This document shows positions 44,806 through 59,599 of a stretch of 64,000 bases of DNA, in pieces. Each line of letters begins with the position of its first letter. Position 1 is the stretch's first letter. The notes beneath the pieces were generated by a model. That model was given only the letters and a program-made list of their open reading frames with translations, was not told where the DNA came from and made no database searches. The DNA is taken from assembly GCA_965199495.1 (NCBI GenBank), contig CBDASK010000003.1, positions 3,392,001 through 3,456,000 of the forward strand, read 5' to 3'. The translations under genes were made by a program, and so were the position numbers. Source of the stretch: Abditibacterium sp. (GTDB lineage Bacteria; Armatimonadota; Abditibacteriia; Abditibacteriales; Abditibacteriaceae).

Positions 44806-45810
44806 TCATAAAGGTGTTTCAAACTTCAGTGGCCAATTTTCGTTTACCGAAATTTTGCCGCGCAACGTGAGTTTGTGGCGCGCTTTGAAAAGCGAATCCA
44901 GATGAACTGAGAGGCTGTTGACATCCTCGCCCTCAACAAGTTGTTTTTTGAGTTTCCTTTCGGCTGCCGACCAGCCAACATCCTCGAAATCAAAGTTGCC
45001 TTTGCGATTATATCGATGAATATTTCCTTTTTCGTCCACGATTTCCACATCGTAAATGCGCGAGGAAGATAGAGCGGATTTGAAATTATCATTCTTTTGG
45101 CGGCGATAAATGATGTGGACTTCTGCCTCTTCTCTCATCGCAATATCTCTTCGACTGGGGTCGTTCAAATTTACGAAAGGATCGACCACAACTTTGATTA
45201 TCTGCCCACCCGTCGTGCGATCATTGGATGAAGGCATTGTTTCGCCTGCTTTACGAATCTCGCGCTCGATTTTTAAAGGCGCAAGTCCCGCCAGACTGTA
45301 TAGTCCGCGAAATTTAACTGCTCCTGCCTCTGAGGGCACGCTATTAAGCCGCACGAAGCTAACGAAGACGTAGTTTCCATCTTCGTCAACAGAATACTTT
45401 GTCGTTCGTTCTTCACCGACTTTGGTTTGTCTAACCGCAATCCCGTTGCGTGTCGTCGTTAGAACTCCGCCCGTCCATGCCGTTTGTTTTCTTCTGCCAA
45501 GCGGCAATGATGCTATCGAAGATAGCAATGCTTCTGGGTGCAACGGGTCTGCTGGGCCGTTGCCGTTGCAACAATCGTTCGTCCATTCTGGCCGAGGCCA
45601 ACCCGGAGAAATTGTTACTGTCACTTGATGGCTGAAACCTCGTTCCTGCCAATACCCCGGCGCCGATTCGGCTTTGAAATCCGAAACATACATCGAACGC
45701 GGTTGAGGCTTAGGTCGTGCTTCTCGCCCCTGCCACCAAAACGCCAGCGCGCCGATGAGTAAAAATGGCGCGAACAGCCACAGTTCGCGCGCTTTGAATC
45801 GTTGTCGCAT
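44806..45810 (-). CDS. Membrane-anchored hypothetical protein, paralog family member 1
   Basis: MRQRFKARELWLFAPFLLIG anchor; motifs shared with 46602, 47616 and 58688. Confidence 0.8.
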   Translation of the reverse strand: MRQRFKARELWLFAPFLLIGALAFWWQGREARPKPQPRSMYVSDFKAESAPGYWQERGFSHQVTVTISPGWPRPEWTNDCCNGNGPADPLHPEALLSSIASLPLGRRKQTAWTGGVLTTTRNGIAVRQTKVGEERTTKYSVDEDGNYVFVSFVRLNSVPSEAGAVKFRGLYSLAGLAPLKIEREIRKAGETMPSSNDRTTGGQIIKVVVDPFVNLNDPSRRDIAMREEAEVHIIYRRQKNDNFKSALSSSRIYDVEIVDEKGNIHRYNRKGNFDFEDVGWSAAERKLKKQLVEGEDVNSLSVHLDSLFKARHKLTLRGKISVNENWPLKFETPL

Positions 45811-45814
45811 TTCT

Positions 45815-45841
45815 TTAGTTTACATTTGCATCGAAGACAAA
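45815..45841. repeat. Duplicate of the 3' end of the ubiA-family gene
   Basis: TTAGTTTACATTTGCATCGAAG identical at 45815-45836 and 48698-48719 (26/27 when extended). Confidence 0.9.
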
Positions 45842-45912
45842 CATCGCTAATCGTGCGACGATAAATTCCAAATTATTTTATATTTGAGCCGAATTTGACA
45901 TATATTTGGCGT

Positions 45913-46286
45913 GTGAATCCTGAAGAGAAACCACTGGATCGATTTAAGGGCGTGCAAATCACCACTCCACCGATGGGGGCGGTTGCGCGGCGTGAGGCCG
46001 GTTTTTTGCTGGGGCGCATTGCTGGGGCGCATTGCTGGGGCGCATTCAGGATGGCGAAGTTTTGGGAATGCCGCACGCGCGACCATTGTCAAACATCGCC
46101 GCTGGTCTCTACGAATTGCGTATTCGCGAGGCCGATAAAAACTGGCGCATCTTCTATCGCGTTGATGATGACCGTATTCTGCTGATTCACCAGATCAATA
46201 AAACGACGCAAACTTTGCCCGACAAAGACAAAGCGTTAATTCGTCAACGTCTCGCTGCTTACGATGCAGCCAAAGCCGAGGAGTAA
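45913..46286 (+). pseudogene. RelE/HigB (Gp49-like) toxin, frameshifted by a 13-bp tandem repeat
   Basis: N-part KPL...TPPM...ARREAGFLLGRI and C-part QDGE.LGMPHARPL...GLYELRI...WRIFY are in different frames; GCTGGGGCGCATT x3 at 46008-46046. Confidence 0.85.
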
Positions 46287-46292
46287 ACCAAA

Positions 46293-46586
46293 ATGAAAAC
46301 CGAAGATTTGGGCCGCGAAGTCACGCGCGCCGAACTGTTGGGACTCACGCCCGAAGACGAAGCCATCGTTAATATCCGCTTGGCGCTGCACCGCAAACTC
46401 AAAGAAGCGCGCGCGCGCAGTGGCTTGAGTCAGGCGGCGCTGGCGCAGCGCATCGGGTCGAGCCAATCGCGCATCGCCAAAGCCGAAGCGGGTTCGCGCG
46501 AAATTTCGCTCGATTTAATCTTGCGCGCCGCCATCGCGAGTGGAGCCACGGCGCGCGAAATTGGCGAAGCGATCCAGGCGATGTAA
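46293..46586 (+). CDS. XRE/HigA-like HTH antitoxin
   Basis: GLSQAALAQRIGSSQSRIAKAE HTH; directly downstream of the toxin. Confidence 0.9.
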   Translation: MKTEDLGREVTRAELLGLTPEDEAIVNIRLALHRKLKEARARSGLSQAALAQRIGSSQSRIAKAEAGSREISLDLILRAAIASGATAREIGEAIQAM

Positions 46587-46601
46587 CTTGAAAGCGCAAA
46601 G

Positions 46602-47600
46602 CTACTTCGCGGGCGCCGTGGCTGCTGGTCGCGGCGGCAGTTTTATCTCGAATGGAATCGGCCATCTGTCGCCTAAATATACGTTGCCTTTGACAGTGAT
46701 GCGGCCTTTGGTTTTATCTTGCGCGTCTATGGACAAATTGAAAACTTTGCCGATCTGACCGGGCTTCAACGAGATTTTTGGCTCTTCCGGAAAGCCTGTT
46801 CCGTAAGTTGTATAGCCAGAAACTCCAGTCGTTTCGTCATTCATGTCGGTGATTGTGCAATTTAATTCGGGCTTTTTTGTCTTGGATGCCAGCGGCAGAA
46901 TCGGTTCGACAATGATTTTAATCGCGGTTAGATCAGAGGTTTTCGATAAGTTGCTGACTGCGCCCATCGGGTTGTTTTTCCATGGCGTTGCTTCAATCGA
47001 GACCAACTTAACGCCCGGATTTTTATCTACTGGCGGAAACTTCTCGCCCGCCGCGCGCACCACTTTTTGTGCCCTGACTAAATCGCCATTCTTAAACTGG
47101 TAAAGCCCCCGGAAAGTGACTTTGCCCAACTTCGGCGACACCCCGCGCAGATTGAAAGGATGCTTGATTTTATAGTTTTGTCCATCAAATTGAACAATTC
47201 TTGGATAGCCCGTGGAAATAGCATCCACGAACACCGTTTTGTCCGGTCGAAGAGCTGTTATAATTCCGCCCGCCGCCCATTTGATGTTGGTTTTGGGCGT
47301 ATAATAAACAGTTGGCGGCCTTTTCTCATTCATCGGATCGAGCGAAAGTGGCGTTTCGTCTATTTCGCCCCACCAACGCGGCTTAGGCCACGAATGCGAG
47401 AGCGTTACCGTAACATAATGGCTCACATCCATCGCTTCATCGCGCCCCGTTGCGGGCGTGCGCTCGATTTTCGACACATACATCCCGCGTTTTTCCGGTG
47501 GATTGACTTGTTCCCAACGCCGGTAAAATAAGGCCGCCACGCCGATGAGTAAAAATGGCGCGAACAGCCACAGTTCGCGCGCTTTGAATCGTTGTCGCAT
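46602..47600 (-). CDS. Membrane-anchored hypothetical protein, paralog family member 2
   Basis: First 60 nt identical to member 1; SH.V.V, WPKP.WW, FRGLY, RWPIPF motifs. Confidence 0.8.
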   Translation of the reverse strand: MRQRFKARELWLFAPFLLIGVAALFYRRWEQVNPPEKRGMYVSKIERTPATGRDEAMDVSHYVTVTLSHSWPKPRWWGEIDETPLSLDPMNEKRPPTVYYTPKTNIKWAAGGIITALRPDKTVFVDAISTGYPRIVQFDGQNYKIKHPFNLRGVSPKLGKVTFRGLYQFKNGDLVRAQKVVRAAGEKFPPVDKNPGVKLVSIEATPWKNNPMGAVSNLSKTSDLTAIKIIVEPILPLASKTKKPELNCTITDMNDETTGVSGYTTYGTGFPEEPKISLKPGQIGKVFNLSIDAQDKTKGRITVKGNVYLGDRWPIPFEIKLPPRPAATAPAK

Positions 47601-47615
47601 AAAATAGAGTTTCGC

Positions 47616-48692
47616 TTATGGCGTTTCGATTGGCTTGCCATCGCGCCAGAGCGGAATGGGAAAATCGTCGGCTTTGCCAACGTAGGTATCAGCGCCGCCG
47701 CGAGGTGGCAATTCGACCTTGAATTGTAAGGGCCAGCGTTGATCGAGCGAGATTTTCCCGCTCATGGTCAGGCGCCCCGTTGTTTTAATGCGCTGATCTA
47801 TCATCAATACCGTCCCTTGCACTCGCTCATTGTGCGCACGATTGGCGTTTGCCGAAGTCTCGCCGCTACTCGTGCCTTGAGAAAAACCTGTGGTCGAGTA
47901 AGGGCTGATTATCACGCCCTTTTCGTCTTTCAACTCGATGTCATAAACCGGAAATCCACCGAAATTTGATTGCGAAGCAGTCGCTTGCAAATCTCGAACG
48001 CGGAAGTTCAAACGGCAATCATCCTCTTTGCTGGTTTTGCCGCGCACCGTGGCACCATTGAAAACTTGAAATGGTTTCGCATCAATTGCGAGCAGTTGCG
48101 CGCCCGGATTTTTGTCCGTCGCCATCGGCAAAGTTTCGCCCGCCTTGCGCACGGCTCGCTCAAGGGCAATCTGCGGTTGTCCGACAATGCGATACAAACC
48201 GTGAAACGTGATCGCGCCCGCTTTAGCCGGAATTTCGCTGAGCTTAATATAGTGAGAAAAGCGATAGGTGTCGTTTTCAAACGTTCCTGAAGTTGTCAGA
48301 ATCGCGTCTTTGTCGGGCCATCGAATATTTCTGCCATCCTGCACGAAGGTAATCGCTCCACCCGGCGAAAGATATTGATTGAGTGTCGTGCCGCCAATCA
48401 GGCTTTCGGGTCTTTCCGGATGAAGCGGATCACACCGGCTACTAATATTTCCCGTTTGCCCCCACCATTTTGGGCGCGGCCACGGATGCGAAACACTCAC
48501 TTCGACTTGATGGCTGTAACCTTTTTCCCGCCAATATCCCGGCGCCGCCTCGACTTTGAAATCTGAAACAAGCATTCCGCCTGCGCCCGGTCTGGAAACT
48601 TGTTCGACGCGCGCCCAGTAAATTGCGCCCGCGATAATTAGTAAAAACGGCGCGAACAGCCACAGTTCGCGCGCTTTGAATTTGAGTTTCAT
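47616..48692 (-). CDS. Membrane-anchored hypothetical protein, paralog family member 3
   Basis: FKARELWLFAPFLLI anchor; APGYW, FHGLY, RKAGET, GKISLDQRWPL. Confidence 0.8.
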   Translation of the reverse strand: MKLKFKARELWLFAPFLLIIAGAIYWARVEQVSRPGAGGMLVSDFKVEAAPGYWREKGYSHQVEVSVSHPWPRPKWWGQTGNISSRCDPLHPERPESLIGGTTLNQYLSPGGAITFVQDGRNIRWPDKDAILTTSGTFENDTYRFSHYIKLSEIPAKAGAITFHGLYRIVGQPQIALERAVRKAGETLPMATDKNPGAQLLAIDAKPFQVFNGATVRGKTSKEDDCRLNFRVRDLQATASQSNFGGFPVYDIELKDEKGVIISPYSTTGFSQGTSSGETSANANRAHNERVQGTVLMIDQRIKTTGRLTMSGKISLDQRWPLQFKVELPPRGGADTYVGKADDFPIPLWRDGKPIETP

Positions 48693-54462: not shown

Positions 54463-55708
54463 TTATCTTTTTCGCAAAATCACGACGCGATTAGAATTGG
54501 TGCCACGCGCGCCGTTGGTCACGCCCCACAAATGCGCGGTTTTGGTAAATTCCTGCGCATTAACGACAATGCACTCGATTTCAAACCCGACAGTTGCGCC
54601 GATTTGAACGGCTTCGATTTCCAATCGCACTTTCTTTGCGGCGACTTCGCCGACTTCAAAACAGAGCGCGCCGCCCGGTTTTAAAACACGATGCCATTCG
54701 ACAAACGCGCGCTGCATCCAGGCGCGCCATTGATTTAAGTCGCGCGTTTGCCATAAATTTAGCGGCTCCAAATCGCGTCCACAAAACCACGCGCGCAACC
54801 AATTATCGAGTTTGTAATCCACGACATCCAGAAACGGCGGCGAGGTGACGATCAGATCAACCGATTCGTTTGATGCAGCCACATCGTCTGCCGCGCCCGT
54901 CCAAATGCGATGATTCAGGCCAAAATCACAAAAGTCGTCGCGCAACAATTGCCGCGATTTGCGCGCGATGAGTTTGCGCGTGTCGCGGTAAGTCGGAGTT
55001 TGCGCGCGCTTCTCGTTAATCTTTTGCTGCGATTGGAGCGCAACCGCTTGATTAGGCGGCATCGTGTAAACCGAGAAAAAGCCGGGCGAATGTCCAGTCA
55101 GACGATTGGCCGCCACCATTTCGAGCCACGCATCAACGTTGTCGAAATCGTCTGTTAAACGTCGCAAGTTGAAATAACGCCGCCACGCTTCGAGTTCTTG
55201 GAGAGTTTGGCGCTCGAAGAAAACCAGCAGTTCTTCGTTTTGCAGCGGCGCGATTGGCAATTCGATTTCGCGTAACCGTGCCTCGATTTGCGCCAACTTC
55301 GGTGGCCTCACGCGCGGCGTGGCTAATGTTTGCGCGACCGGATTCAAATCGCTGCCCAGCGCGCGACGTCCCAAAAGCGCCGCTTCAATCGGCGTCGTGC
55401 CGCGTCCCATTGAACGGATCGAAAACCGTGTCGCCGGGCATGGTTAGTCGTTCGATAAAAAAGCGCGGCACCTGCGGTTTAAAACACGCGCGATACGAAA
55501 CTTCGTGCAACAAATGGCACGCGCGCTGACGTGAAGTCCAAAACTCGTTGATGTAAACCGCGACTTGTCCGCCGTCGAACTCCCAATTTTCATATTGCGT
55601 CGGCGTGCCGAACTCGTTGAAGTCACGCAATTGTGCATGGAAATCGTCCCAACTCTGGCAAGTCTGAATTGGCGCGAGTTCGATATCAGGAAATAAGGAG
55701 GCTTGCAT
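54463..55708 (-). pseudogene. Amino-DNA methyltransferase, split by a 1-bp insertion (or sequencing error)
   Basis: SAM motif DPF|MGRGTT broken at 55410-55411 (TTC-A-ATG-GGA); catalytic TSPPF downstream; YRACFKPQ.P upstream. Confidence 0.85.
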
Positions 55709-55723
55709 GGGTCGAATCCCCAA

Positions 55724-56767
55724 CTACTCATCTTCAAAAGGCGATGAGTCCTCTATCATCTGGAATCTCAAGCGGCGAGGAGAATCCATTACTTCGTTAA
55801 TCTTCTCTTCAAATGGCAATCGTTTAGTTGCTTCTGTGGCCTTTGCACAATGGAACTCTTTGGTAAATCCGAGAATAATTTCATCTTCAGTTAAGGCAAG
55901 AGGCTGAGCGTCATGAAGATACGCCGCAGCCGCTACACCTATCTTTTTCCTAATCCTCATAATTACTGCTGGCCACAATTCTACCAAATCGTCAAAATTA
56001 TGGATCCTCCTGGGCTTGTGATGCAATTGAGCGGGATTATTTTCTGAGAACGGATCGGAATCAGAAGGTGAGGAATCTTCTGGTTTAGTAGTAGCGAATG
56101 GCGGACTCAAGACATTCGATTGCTTTGAGATCGGGGAGAAATCTCTGCTCGCTTTCGGTCGTCCTTGTGCTACTTCCACAACTTTACGAAGCGCTGAAAT
56201 CTCACCACCTTGAACGCGCAGAAGTTCTAACGCCTCCTGTAACATCTCGTCAGACGAGCGCGCTGGCGCTGGATTTTGAATTGGTAACTCAGTCGCCTCT
56301 TGTAATTTACTTTCCAATTCCGGCCAACAACGCTCGAAATTACGATTTAGTCGCTCATCCGAAAGTGGTTTCTCCTCATGGTTTGCGAGACATCCATTGA
56401 TGCTTTGAAGTAACTTGAAAACTTCGTCACGATCAACAGAAGTATGTTGAAACATAGCGAGAGGAAATTCTACTTCTGCGGGCTTTATATCCAACAGAAA
56501 AGTTTAAGTGTGGGCGACGCGCGCCTTTGCCAATGCTCCCGCTTCGAAATGCAGCCATTTGGAATCGAGATTATCTTGAGTTAAGCAAAGAATACCGATA
56601 GGCGCTTGTTCTAAGCCGGACATGATTTCATCTGCCCATCGTTTGCCCTTCTCAATTTCCGTAGACATCCAAGGCTCAACGGCTTGCACAACATCGCCTA
56701 ACCAATTGGTTAGAGCTTCTGCGACTCTCCTGCTTCGTGGCCCAGACCAAGAAATAAAAACTTGCAT
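55724..56767 (-). pseudogene. TIR-domain protein with a DnaX/DnaA-like C-terminal domain, interrupted by one in-frame TAA
   Basis: VFISWS, WLHFEAGAL TIR motifs; TAA at 56504-56506 followed in the same frame by TFLLDIKP...PLAMFQ, continuing the TIR fold. Confidence 0.8.
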
Positions 56768-56775
56768 AATAATTT

Positions 56776-56810
56776 GAAAGCGCCGCCCAAAAATTTTGGG
56801 CGGCGCTTTC
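56776..56810 (-). terminator. Hairpin downstream of aspS
   Basis: GAAAGCGCCGCCCAAA-AAT-TTTGGGCGGCGCTTTC. Confidence 0.75.
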
Positions 56811-56814
56811 GAGT

Positions 56815-58632
56815 TTACTCATCTTCCTCGCGCGGCAATTCCGCCAAGCCCATCTCCGCCCAACGCTCGACAGGAATATAAGTCGGCGCGCCCGTCAGAG
56901 GGTCTTGGCCACCGCTCGTTTTGGGAAACGGAATTACTTCGCGGATGTTGCCGTCGGCGATGCCTGCCAGCAAAGCCACGACGCGGTCGAAACCGGGCGC
57001 GATGCCGCCGTGTGGCGGCGCGCCGTATTCAAACGCATCGAGCATAAATCCGAAACGTTCCTGCGCGATTTCCATTGGCAAACCGATAACATCGAAGATT
57101 TGCTGCTGAATGTCGCGGCGATGGCAACGAATCGAACCGCTCGCCAACTCGAAACCGTTGAGAACTAAATCGTAAAGCCACGCGCGAATCAAAGCGTGCG
57201 GGTGCAGCGAGTCGCCTTTGGATAGGTTTGTGGTGAAACCCTCGGCGAGCAAATGCATATCTTCCGGGTTGGGCAGGCAAAACGGATGATGCGCGGCGTC
57301 GAAAGTGCCGGATGACGCGTCGTATTCAAACATCGGCGTATCCACGATCCACAGAAAATTGAATTTGTCGCGCGGAATCAAATCCAATCGCTGCGCCATT
57401 TCGCGGCGCAAAAAGTCGAGCGATTGCGCGACAACGCTCGGTTTATCGGCGACGACCAACACTAAATCGCCCGGCCCGGCGTTCATGCGCTCGAAAATGC
57501 CGTTCATCTGATCTTCGGTGAAAAACTTGGCGACGTTCGATTTAATTTCACTTTCGCCCTTAGCAAACGTGGCCAATCCGCGCGCACCGAAACGTTTGAC
57601 GAGTTCGGTCAATGCGTCCACTTCCTTGCGCGAATAAGCAGCCACGCCGGGCGCGCAGATCGCTTTGACCTGTCCGCCCGTGGCGAGGGCGTTGGTGAAA
57701 ACTTTGAATTGCGAATCGGCAACGATGTCGCTGATGTCGGTCAACTCCATGCCAAAACGCGTGTCGGGTTTATCGGTGCCAAAACGTCGCATCGATTCGG
57801 CGTAGGGCATCCGCTCGAACGGAAGCGAAATGTCGATGTTTTTCACCGATTTCATCAAATGCGCGAAGAGTTTCTCGGTGAGTTCGAGAATATCGTCTTG
57901 CACGACGAAACTCATCTCGATGTCGATCTGGGTGAATTCGGGTTGGCGGTCGGCGCGCGCGCTTTCGTCGCGGAAACAGCGCGCGATTTGGAAATACTTC
58001 TCGATGCCGCCAACCATCAACAACTGCTTGGCGATTTGTGGCGATTGCGGCAACACGAACGCTTTGCCGACCGGCTGGCGAACAGGCACGACATATTCGC
58101 GCGCGCCTTCGGGCGTGGATTTCCATAGCAATGGCGTCTCGACTTCCCAGAAACCTTCGGCGTCCAAGAAATTGCGCGTCTCGCGCGACAGGCGATAACG
58201 CATTTCCAAAATATCGCGCACCGGCGCGCGGCGCATATCGAGATAGCGATATTGCAAACGCACGTCTTCCGAAGCGCGCGTGTCGGGCGTCAATTCAAAC
58301 GGCAGCGGCTTGGATGTGTTGAGAATAATCACTTCGTCAACGCGCACTTCGATTTGGCCGGTGGGAAGTTTGGGATTCTCTTTGCCCGCGACGCGCGCCA
58401 CGACTTCGCCGGTGATTTGCAGACAAAACTCGGATTTGACTTGCGCCAGAACATCGTAGATTTCGGCGTTGATTTCGCGGTCGGCGACGATTTGCACCAA
58501 ACCGGAACGGTCGCGCAGGTCAATGAAGCATTGATACGATTGGTCGCGGACGGTGGAAGACCAACCGCAAAGAGTGACGGTTTGGCCGATATTTTCGGGG
58601 CGAAGTTCGCCGCAATGATGGGTGCGTTGCAT
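56815..58632 (-). CDS. aspS: Aspartate--tRNA ligase
   Basis: RTHHCGELR, FIDLRDRSG, STPEGAR, LPQSPQ, CFRDE, DRQPEFTQID, PPHGGIAPGFDR. Confidence 0.98.
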   Translation of the reverse strand: MQRTHHCGELRPENIGQTVTLCGWSSTVRDQSYQCFIDLRDRSGLVQIVADREINAEIYDVLAQVKSEFCLQITGEVVARVAGKENPKLPTGQIEVRVDEVIILNTSKPLPFELTPDTRASEDVRLQYRYLDMRRAPVRDILEMRYRLSRETRNFLDAEGFWEVETPLLWKSTPEGAREYVVPVRQPVGKAFVLPQSPQIAKQLLMVGGIEKYFQIARCFRDESARADRQPEFTQIDIEMSFVVQDDILELTEKLFAHLMKSVKNIDISLPFERMPYAESMRRFGTDKPDTRFGMELTDISDIVADSQFKVFTNALATGGQVKAICAPGVAAYSRKEVDALTELVKRFGARGLATFAKGESEIKSNVAKFFTEDQMNGIFERMNAGPGDLVLVVADKPSVVAQSLDFLRREMAQRLDLIPRDKFNFLWIVDTPMFEYDASSGTFDAAHHPFCLPNPEDMHLLAEGFTTNLSKGDSLHPHALIRAWLYDLVLNGFELASGSIRCHRRDIQQQIFDVIGLPMEIAQERFGFMLDAFEYGAPPHGGIAPGFDRVVALLAGIADGNIREVIPFPKTSGGQDPLTGAPTYIPVERWAEMGLAELPREEDE

Positions 58633-58687: not shown

Positions 58688-59599
58688 ATGAAACGATTTT
58701 CCGCGCGCGAGTTCGCGCTATTGTGCGTGCCGGTGGCTGTTGTTGCGGGCGCGGGTTGGTGGGCGGCGCGTCGCCCAAAGCCTGAACCTTATATCGCGCC
58801 GAAATTCTCGCTGAGTTATGAACCTCCGTCGTCGCTCAAAGCGTTCGAGGGCGCCAGAACTGTGATCGTCGCCAAATTGAGTAAGGATTCGCAGGGCAAT
58901 CCCTATATGTTAGACGGTTTGAAAAGTCCCAAATTTTGGCTCGATGTTACCACGCCGCAGGGCATTAAGAGTTGGCGCACCGATGGAACCGGCACTTTTC
59001 AAATCAAAGGTGCTTCTGCGATGAATGGCGCAAACCAGTGGTATTACATCTATCTGACTCAATTGCCCGCTGGCGATTTGACTTTTGGTGTCAGTGGAAC
59101 GGCTGTGAGTTCGTCTTTTCCAAGTTCAGCCCAACCGCATTGGATCAAACAGAAATTGCCCGTAGATAAAACCAAACTGCAAGAATTCGATTTCTCGTTG
59201 CCACGCGCGCCGCTTATCAAACTAAAATCCGCGACGATTTCACAAATCACCCGGCCAATCAGAGCGATCATTCAATTGACTTTCGTTTTGCAGGGCACAA
59301 AGAAAGCAGAAGAAATTGCTGTTCAAACAGATTTGAAAGAATCACATGGCTACGTCCTTTCCAGTTCGATGCAGTTGGATTCAAACGTGCCCCGAAGCCT
59401 CATCGTTGAACCAGATGTTGCTGATGCCAACGGTTTGACCGAGAAAATTGAATTGACCGGACGCATCAGCGCCGATAATCGTTGGCCGCTCGCTTTTAAA
59501 ATCGAGCCGTTCGATTTCAAAAACATTAAAGTTGGTCAAAAACTCAAATTCAAATCGTGGCCCGCGCCGCTTCCATCTGGCGTTGTGTTGAAGAAGTAA
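58688..59599 (+). CDS. Membrane-anchored hypothetical protein, distant member of the paralog family
   Basis: MKRFSAREFALL anchor and C-terminal GRISADNRWPLAFKIE resemble members 1-3. Confidence 0.7.
   Translation: MKRFSAREFALLCVPVAVVAGAGWWAARRPKPEPYIAPKFSLSYEPPSSLKAFEGARTVIVAKLSKDSQGNPYMLDGLKSPKFWLDVTTPQGIKSWRTDGTGTFQIKGASAMNGANQWYYIYLTQLPAGDLTFGVSGTAVSSSFPSSAQPHWIKQKLPVDKTKLQEFDFSLPRAPLIKLKSATISQITRPIRAIIQLTFVLQGTKKAEEIAVQTDLKESHGYVLSSSMQLDSNVPRSLIVEPDVADANGLTEKIELTGRISADNRWPLAFKIEPFDFKNIKVGQKLKFKSWPAPLPSGVVLKK

Follow-up and report, generated by a model that had tools for sequence, protein, structure and literature searches.

A TIR protein carrying copies of host replisome parts: a candidate integrated-decoy sensor, interrupted in Abditibacterium

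How bacterial TIR proteins detect phage has been worked out for few cases. A gene in the 64,000-nucleotide stretch of an Abditibacterium genome analyzed here (the window; genome G000) bears on this question, since it joins a TIR domain to what appear to be parts of its host's own replisome and is broken by a stop codon. What would a TIR protein do with such parts, and is the gene still alive? Our analysis suggests, with a probability of roughly 55%, that the TIR-tauC protein (tauC denoting its copy of the DnaX C-terminal domain) is a single-gene bacterial integrated-decoy sensor that was inactivated recently in this strain.

Translation bore out the reading frame described earlier for this gene (a single frame at 55724-56767 on the minus strand, with one in-frame TAA at codon 88), and the motifs WLHFEAGAL, SDSDPFSE, WPAVIMRIRKKIG and DSSPFEDE were each found as the preliminary description had given them. 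The N-terminal domain, identified there as a TIR, scored 37.6 bits against Pfam TIR_2, where the cut-off is 28, and aligned with the SpbK TIR over 146 residues in a structure comparison (Z 12.3, rmsd 3.5). Glu75, the putative catalytic residue by analogy with TIR enzymes, was invariant in the alignment of all 260 database proteins that share the TIR and its helical extension (hereafter the chassis). A structure predicted from a 144-row alignment, with X placed at the stop, had a mean pLDDT of 87.5 and ran from the TIR through two long helices (up to residue 200) and a disordered linker to a compact alpha/beta domain at about residues 255-337; it superseded an initial model from four sequences, in which the TIR was poor (pLDDT 56.7). 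The helical extension (residues 131-200) is probably an assembly element. An ESM Atlas search with the protein returned generic TIR_2 clusters only, all under 0.9. The gene is also AT-richer than its neighbours, as had been remarked: its GC content is 45.6%, versus 55.9% for aspS, 53.8% for the methylase gene and 54.9% for the window, and its GC3 of 0.39-0.42 compares with a median of 0.67 among 1992 long ORFs, 0.35% of which lie at or below 0.41.

Table 1 Features of the TIR-tauC gene and its flanks, in window positions.
Feature	Position	Strand	Remarks
TIR-tauC-SSB-tail gene	55724..56767	-	347 codons; interrupted at codon 88
TIR domain, aa 1-130	56378..56767	-	Pfam TIR_2 E 3.5e-9; SpbK fold match; SPARTA TIR-APAZ E 1.6e-5
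Glu75, catalytic-type glutamate	56543..56545	-	invariant across 260/260 chassis proteins
In-frame TAA, recent	56504..56506	-	present in X1 contig; conserved chassis columns kept
Helical extension, aa 131-200	56168..56377	-	helices 137-159 and 172-200; conserved chassis part
Disordered Pro/Ser linker, aa 201-250	56018..56167	-	pLDDT <50 at residues 213-233
Internal SSB-tail-like motif SDSDPFSE	56042..56065	-	DSDPF rarity in six-frame genome count
Host DnaX (tau) C-terminal globular domain copy	55754..56017	-	without DnaX acidic linker and final helix
Terminal SSB-tail mimic DSSPFEDE	55727..55750	-	6/8 identical to host SSB end, in register with stop
16-pair hairpin	56776..56810	-	between aspS and TIR start codon
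aspS, upstream flank	56815..58632	-	Pfam match
DNA methyltransferase, downstream flank	54463..55708	-	frameshifted at 55411/55412

The C-terminal part had been likened to either the DnaX (tau) C-terminal domain or the DnaA N-terminus. It is the former: the domain matched DnaX_C (PF20964) at 29.3 bits (cut-off 26.2) and shares 77% identity over 87 aa with DnaX of this same host, and the genome's two PF20964 matches are dnaX itself (C3:4711222-4711464) and the TIR-tauC gene. The likeness to DnaA holds for the fold (domain I, Z 10.3, rmsd 2.6, 82 residues aligned) but not for the sequence; at 24% identity and E 2.7 to host DnaA, the DnaA N-terminus is ruled out as the source of the domain, the fold being shared by the two. 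Comparison of 88 codons with host dnaX gave 15 identities, 52 silent differences and 21 amino-acid replacements. Four-fold sites differ at 19 of 20 positions, compared with 6 of 38 between the dnaX genes of G000 and G011, and tauC retains 20 of the 21 columns that are invariant in 29 DnaX proteins versus 47 of 67 other columns (p 0.019). Saturated silent sites together with retained invariant residues point to an old capture of a DnaX domain from the host lineage, held by purifying selection. In the domain tree, tauC falls inside the DnaX clade of its own sub-lineage (98/98; 78/98 when the long-branch P0227 is added, a tree from which four distant rows and P0003 were left out). With 12 of 64 codons identical versus 21 expected (p 0.005), the copy might seem to be selected against sharing DNA sequence with dnaX; we rejected this, the value being the lone one of its kind in 18 comparisons, and read the low DNA identity as simple saturation.

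The copy stops at the end of the globular domain, and the DnaX acidic linker, final helix and ATPase domains are missing. When the last 40 residues of host DnaX were folded with the C-terminal domain of host DnaE, the pairing received weak support (0.54, best control 0.00), with 96% or more of contacts shared between runs and a partner pLDDT of at least 58. Of 157 solved pairs, 116 pass the mark applied, as do 2 of 215 mismatched pairs; among these passes, only 18 solved pairs but both mismatches score at or below 0.60, and the pass may reflect likeness to solved complexes. A PDB sequence search using the host tau C-terminus gave no meaningful match. By eye, host dnaX (G000:C3:4708432-4711596) and dnaE (C3:3579549-3584525) each carry an intein-like insertion, and dnaX of G023 (G023:C8:254225-254641) has in-frame stops and an altered tail that are probably assembly errors.

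The second host-like element is short. The acidic PF motifs were said to resemble SSB tails, and they do: the protein ends in IEDSSPFEDE and host SSB in DDYDDSDPFADE. Aligned on the stop, six of the final eight residues (DSSPFEDE) are identical to the DSDPFADE of host SSB, the best match to the SSB end outside SSB among 10,969 frames. In 6.8 million six-frame genome residues DSDPF occurs twice, in SSB and in the linker of the fusion, and DS.PF.DE likewise occurs twice, in SSB and at the C-terminus of the fusion. SSB tails in the bacterial family are themselves uniform, with 24 of 26 SSB loci ending in DDSDPFADE or its -Q form and the remaining two cut by contig ends.

Such ends recur in chassis proteins elsewhere. 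Acidic-PF ends were found, with the same pattern, in 12 of 77 proteins from chassis loci and in none of 260 database proteins; seven of the 12 share one cluster and are not independent. The tails of L116, L119, L133 and L138 are identical to the SSB end of their own host, a comparison that left out L101, whose host SSB tail lies at a contig end; a search for a PF-tailed SSB in the genome of L096 found none. The C-terminus of P0066 is DDSDPFADE, and this protein and the TIR-tauC gene are the two with an acidic-PF end of the Abditibacteriaceae form. Chassis proteins L085-L087, L089, L096-L098, L100 and L129, the majority of them from Bacteroidota, form a cluster with a common, unassigned helical C-domain, and most of its members are LPF-tailed. 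Two further proteins of G000 carry similar motifs: a 921-aa protein (L210:6966-9731) on contig C2, which is 64.6 kb long and phage-like by eye, has the acidic PF end DDDPFDDAK, one of three such ends genome-wide, and an acidic protein of about 204 aa (G000:C3:3468811-3469431, minus strand) has the SSB-tail-like DDFDDTDPFADE near its N-terminus.

SSB tails bind host proteins, and in E. coli the tau globular domain also contacts the polymerase fingers of Pol III; anatomically, tethering is thus as natural a use of these modules as baiting. The main rival to a decoy is a tethered guard, in which tauC together with the SSB-like tails would dock the TIR at the host replication fork through the helicase, the polymerase fingers or SSB-binding proteins, and the TIR would fire when phage dislodges it or remodels the fork. 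Tau surface residues that are invariant in DnaX are retained, tauC has the DnaA domain I fold, which binds helicase, and two replisome modules in one protein would suit avid docking. Set against these points, the polymerase-binding end of tau, its last helix, is missing from all six TIR-tauC fusions. We consider such a tethered guard unlikely, though a serious contender.

Are the fusions more than chance joins? A search for intact TIR fusions, which the preliminary description had called for, found five (P0122 from G020, P0123, P0003, P0127 and P0227), bringing the TIR-tauC proteins to six with the interrupted one. Two of the outcomes named in advance as refuting the idea, a C-terminal domain unlike DnaX/DnaA and homologs never fused to a TIR, are therefore contradicted. 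Extra tauC copies occur in three of 27 Abditibacteriaceae genomes (G000, G020 and G013). Those of G013 are stand-alone genes of 98 aa without a TIR (G013:C41:810-1106 and G013:C4:5326-5622), and P0272-P0279, from several Abditibacteriaceae sequences, are likewise stand-alone copies of 94-109 aa with neither TIR nor tail; stand-alone copies are possibly free decoys or sponges. A single clade for five fusion tauC domains was rejected (p-AU 0.00013, with the long-branch P0003 omitted). The domain tree places G020 and P0123 as a pair outside the genus, P0127 with genus g5 (76%) and the G013 solo copies with G013 DnaX. The chassis of P0122, P0123 and P0127 nevertheless group together (96, FastTree) while their baits track different host lineages, which implies recapture or convergent tracking, and on the FastTree chassis tree the tauC label requires three changes, two of them forced by starred branches. 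Matching to the host is imperfect, which weighs against a decoy: the G020 fusion tauC shares 65% identity with DnaX of its own genome but 68-70% with others, and P0003 and P0227 keep 8 and 14 of the 21 invariant tau columns, respectively.

The same layout recurs in Acidobacteriota, where L101 and L116 combine a TIR with the C-domain of their own DnaX and a DIPF tail. The equivalence of this domain to tauC follows from its position in DnaX and not from a profile match, as the profile comparison was not significant (E 0.11, 17% over 71 columns). No tauC relative was found in 54 candidate stretches of viral contigs, and a fold search over viral proteins gave weak TIR-like matches only.

These results bear on neutral shuffling, by which the 3' end of the chassis would gain random pieces of host DNA that have no function. 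That chassis C-termini are mostly unique and without assignment, and that the interrupted copy is a pseudogene, would fit this idea. It is already largely refuted by silent-site saturation with invariant residues kept, by an identical domain boundary in six fusions and the solo genes, by the several captures that the rejected single clade indicates, and by the renewed pairing in Acidobacteriota of tauC with an SSB tail, whose source genes lie 2.3 Mb apart in this genome. We regard functionless shuffling as the least probable of the readings, and extremely so.

The chassis reaches far beyond these fusions. Searching with a profile built from four of them gave 12,564 matching representatives at E 0.001, or 6,871 at 1e-30, the best 150 of the 12,564 being examined; of 80 loci fetched, 78 had a TIR ORF and 77 yielded proteins longer than 200 aa. 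Together with those 77, we compared 332 distinct chassis proteins; clustering of their C-termini gave 272 clusters, 253 of them singletons. Recognisable host fragments occupy the C-terminus in 25 of the 332, a sample biased to tauC through the queries used: the DnaX C-domain in eight, the beta' insertion in five, the UvrD tudor domain in five (the P0092 match is weak, E 0.006), the Rho N domain in four, and alpha-CTD, sigma region 4 and the L7/L12 CTD in one each, the last below cut-off. Other C-termini carry TPR, HEAT, HNH, DUF559, glyoxalase or HTH domains, while the majority match nothing in Pfam (the scan covered 67 of the 77 locus C-termini). Since C-termini are mostly singletons without a Pfam match, host origin is established for a minority, and a bait role is putative for all.

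Where fragments could be compared, their own host was the best match in six of seven cases with comparators. UvrD tudor domains are 71, 76 and 87% identical to their own host (others 44-71%), the Acidobacteriota DnaX C-domains of L101 and L116 47.5 and 47% (others 32-39%, with one comparison giving no match) and a beta' fragment 54% versus 49%; the beta' insertion also matched E. coli beta' 955-1125 at E 4e-26. The exception is L073, which is closer to RpoC of another genome (53%) than to its own (46%). The alpha-CTD of L132 is 54% identical to its own RpoA. Judged from these sequences, the chassis family repeatedly captures parts of essential host machines. UvrD tudor and L7/L12 domains are docking modules, and their presence in relatives would suit a guard docked on its host partner. 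By contrast, the beta' insertion, alpha-CTD and sigma region 4 are integral to RNA polymerase, and it is easier to see in them target surfaces than docking modules, which speaks against a guard. We tentatively propose, at a little under even odds, a very large and apparently undescribed family of one-gene receptors in which one TIR chassis with a swappable tail is reloaded with host surfaces from the replisome, RNA polymerase, Rho, UvrD and the ribosome. No description of TIR fusions to host fragments was found in the full-text literature, a search largely outside subscription journals.

Is the chassis a defence protein at all? The PADLOC model TIR-TM (PDLC03016) covers residues 1-186 of the TIR-tauC protein (E 4.9e-56), and three of the 78 chassis loci are Thoeris type II-like clusters with a Macro-domain ThsA. 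At one of these, L115:4036-5846 from Streptomyces, a culturable genus, the Macro-domain ThsA adjoins a TIR-Rho N fusion, itself a candidate decoy sensor, and a ThsB-like gene. Within 2.5 kb of the 78 chassis loci, no recurrent partner was found outside the Macro ThsA loci. Of the 149 nearest neighbour ORFs, 99 were scanned and 23 matched PADLOC at E 1e-5, several of them through generic kinase or HTH domains, a count taken without background control that carries no statistic. In an alternative reading, the protein is a toxin that serves mobile DNA in defence or addiction, its host fragment specifying some other trigger such as replication stress, plasmid replication or a rival element. The gene is indeed an AT-rich, patchy, single-gene insertion, and tauC genes of 94-109 aa that stand alone without a TIR show that the domain has TIR-independent uses. 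The chassis nonetheless fits an anti-phage model and joins Thoeris-like clusters, and an antitoxin or recurrent partner is absent within 2.5 kb at most loci, so that we think a toxin of this kind decidedly improbable.

At the locus itself, the TIR-tauC gene begins nine bases behind a strong hairpin that we infer to be a terminator. A defence-island context, which the preliminary description proposed to look for, is absent: the gene is a single-gene insertion behind aspS, in a variable slot. Contigs of relatives (X2) connect 55708 to 56822, that is, aspS straight to the methylase, another gene occupies the slot between them in G004, and a search of 12 congeners with this gene as query found this TIR in none. 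The flanks, aspS and the methylase gene, leave no adjacent transmembrane partner genes, and no sigma-70-type promoter was found in 55500-57000. Elsewhere in the window, three tandem paralogues at 44806-48692 (minus strand) begin with MRQRFKARELWLFAPFLL or a similar start, and a related start occurs at 58688 in an ORF at 58688-59599 (plus strand) with no Pfam match.

The stop codon had been flagged for checking against reads. Positions 55482-57022 are spanned, without a single difference, by an X1 contig of 1541 bases (depth 44), although run X1 may be the assembly's own source, so that a systematic error remains conceivable. All 49 chassis columns conserved at 80% or more are intact in the interrupted gene (family median 46), which indicates that the stop is recent. 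The TIR-tauC gene here is thus a pseudogene of recent date, whose architecture is widespread and alive elsewhere. That the TAA instead arose from systematic error in sequencing, or undergoes readthrough, leaving the gene active, would account for a TIR that is otherwise undecayed and gains from the possible identity of X1 with the assembly's own run; we hold it very unlikely, given the agreement of the X1 contig, with no second contig covering the site, and the use of TAA as an ordinary stop in this genome. Moreover, dnaX, aspS, ssb, dnaE and their neighbours are unbroken relative to close relatives, and it is the TIR-tauC gene and the methylase gene that are broken. The one-base frameshift of the methylase gene is present in X1 too and absent from the X2 contigs of relatives, and the gene is intact in G004. 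Since the adjacent methylase gene is also broken, plain local decay explains the stop equally as well as the silencing of a costly gene that had been suggested.

Returning to the decoy, the TIR-tauC protein most likely works like an integrated-decoy receptor, to judge from its parts. The TIR and helical chassis carries copies of the tau globular domain and the SSB tail, two host replisome interaction surfaces, on a flexible linker, and a phage protein whose usual target is tau or the SSB tail would bind the bait instead. This ligand may be a replication inhibitor, or a helicase or other replication protein that recruits the host replisome; phage helicase G40P of SPP1, which binds B. subtilis tau (PMC5737612), is a precedent for a phage protein that grips tau. 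Multivalent binding to the bait would cluster the TIRs, which would then cleave NAD+ via Glu75 and halt the infected cell. Absence of tau's last helix would keep the bait off the host polymerase tail, limiting self-activation. Since no partner gene adjoins the TIR-tauC gene, the output in G000 would most likely be direct NAD+ loss; we put the odds at about 60:40 relative to signalling through a separate effector. Some chassis members probably do signal, as their position beside Macro ThsA implies. Searches of G000 for a Macro or STALD ThsA found none, with positive controls silent in two of the searches and the genome 95% complete.

Known systems share parts of this design. SpbK, SPARTA TIR-APAZ, Cat1 and AbTir have the TIR fold and conserved Glu seen here, at 10-20% sequence identity, and respond to guide-target, ligand or other inputs. 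Thoeris type II pairs a TIR protein (ThsB) with a Macro ThsA, as at the three chassis loci that include L115; the TIR-tauC locus has no ThsA effector, and ThsB models score poorly on its protein. The three-gene TIR and transmembrane system of the P2-like phage AC1 guards E. coli against lambda, LF82_P8 and P2, according to the accessible part of Rousset et al. 2022 (PMC9122126), which makes no mention of a variable or host-derived C-terminus for the AC1 TIR. The name of PADLOC TIR-TM PDLC03016, and a number that adjoins the one of TIR-NLR, suggest to us that the model derives from AC1, whose TIR would then share chassis homology with the TIR-tauC protein over residues 1-186; unlike AC1, the TIR-tauC gene has no transmembrane partner genes, and its C-terminal 150 aa are unrelated. 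Closest in logic are the integrated decoys of plant NLRs (RRS1-WRKY with RPS4), which likewise combine a copy of a host protein, in their case one that pathogen proteins attack, with a variable slot and a TIR output (PMC11702601). The TIR-tauC protein differs in being bacterial, in placing sensor and TIR on one small chain with no paired helper, and in lacking NB-ARC and LRR domains (Pfam gives TIR and DnaX_C alone, and a 347-aa model is too small to hold them). It therefore falls outside the plant NLR-ID family and does not make up a complete AC1 or Thoeris system. For bacteria, the preprint on bNACHT11 invokes the integrated-decoy model as a hypothesis for a sensor and, in its available part, names no host protein (PMC11702601), whereas the TIR-tauC protein fuses literal host domains.

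The integrated decoy has thus so far been a hypothesis in bacteria, to go by that part of PMC11702601; here putative decoys are legible in sequence and recur across phyla, and the fragments in the decoy slot match their own hosts in most tested cases. The interrupted copy in the window is dead and is valuable as an entry point to the chassis family. If the decoy reading is true, the family would name host surfaces attacked by phage in uncultured lineages (the tau C-domain, SSB tail, beta' insertion, alpha-CTD, sigma region 4, Rho N and UvrD tudor). Its tails would then form a lineage-by-lineage catalogue of phage targets, and the receptor would be a modular sensor that could be re-aimed by swapping the bait.
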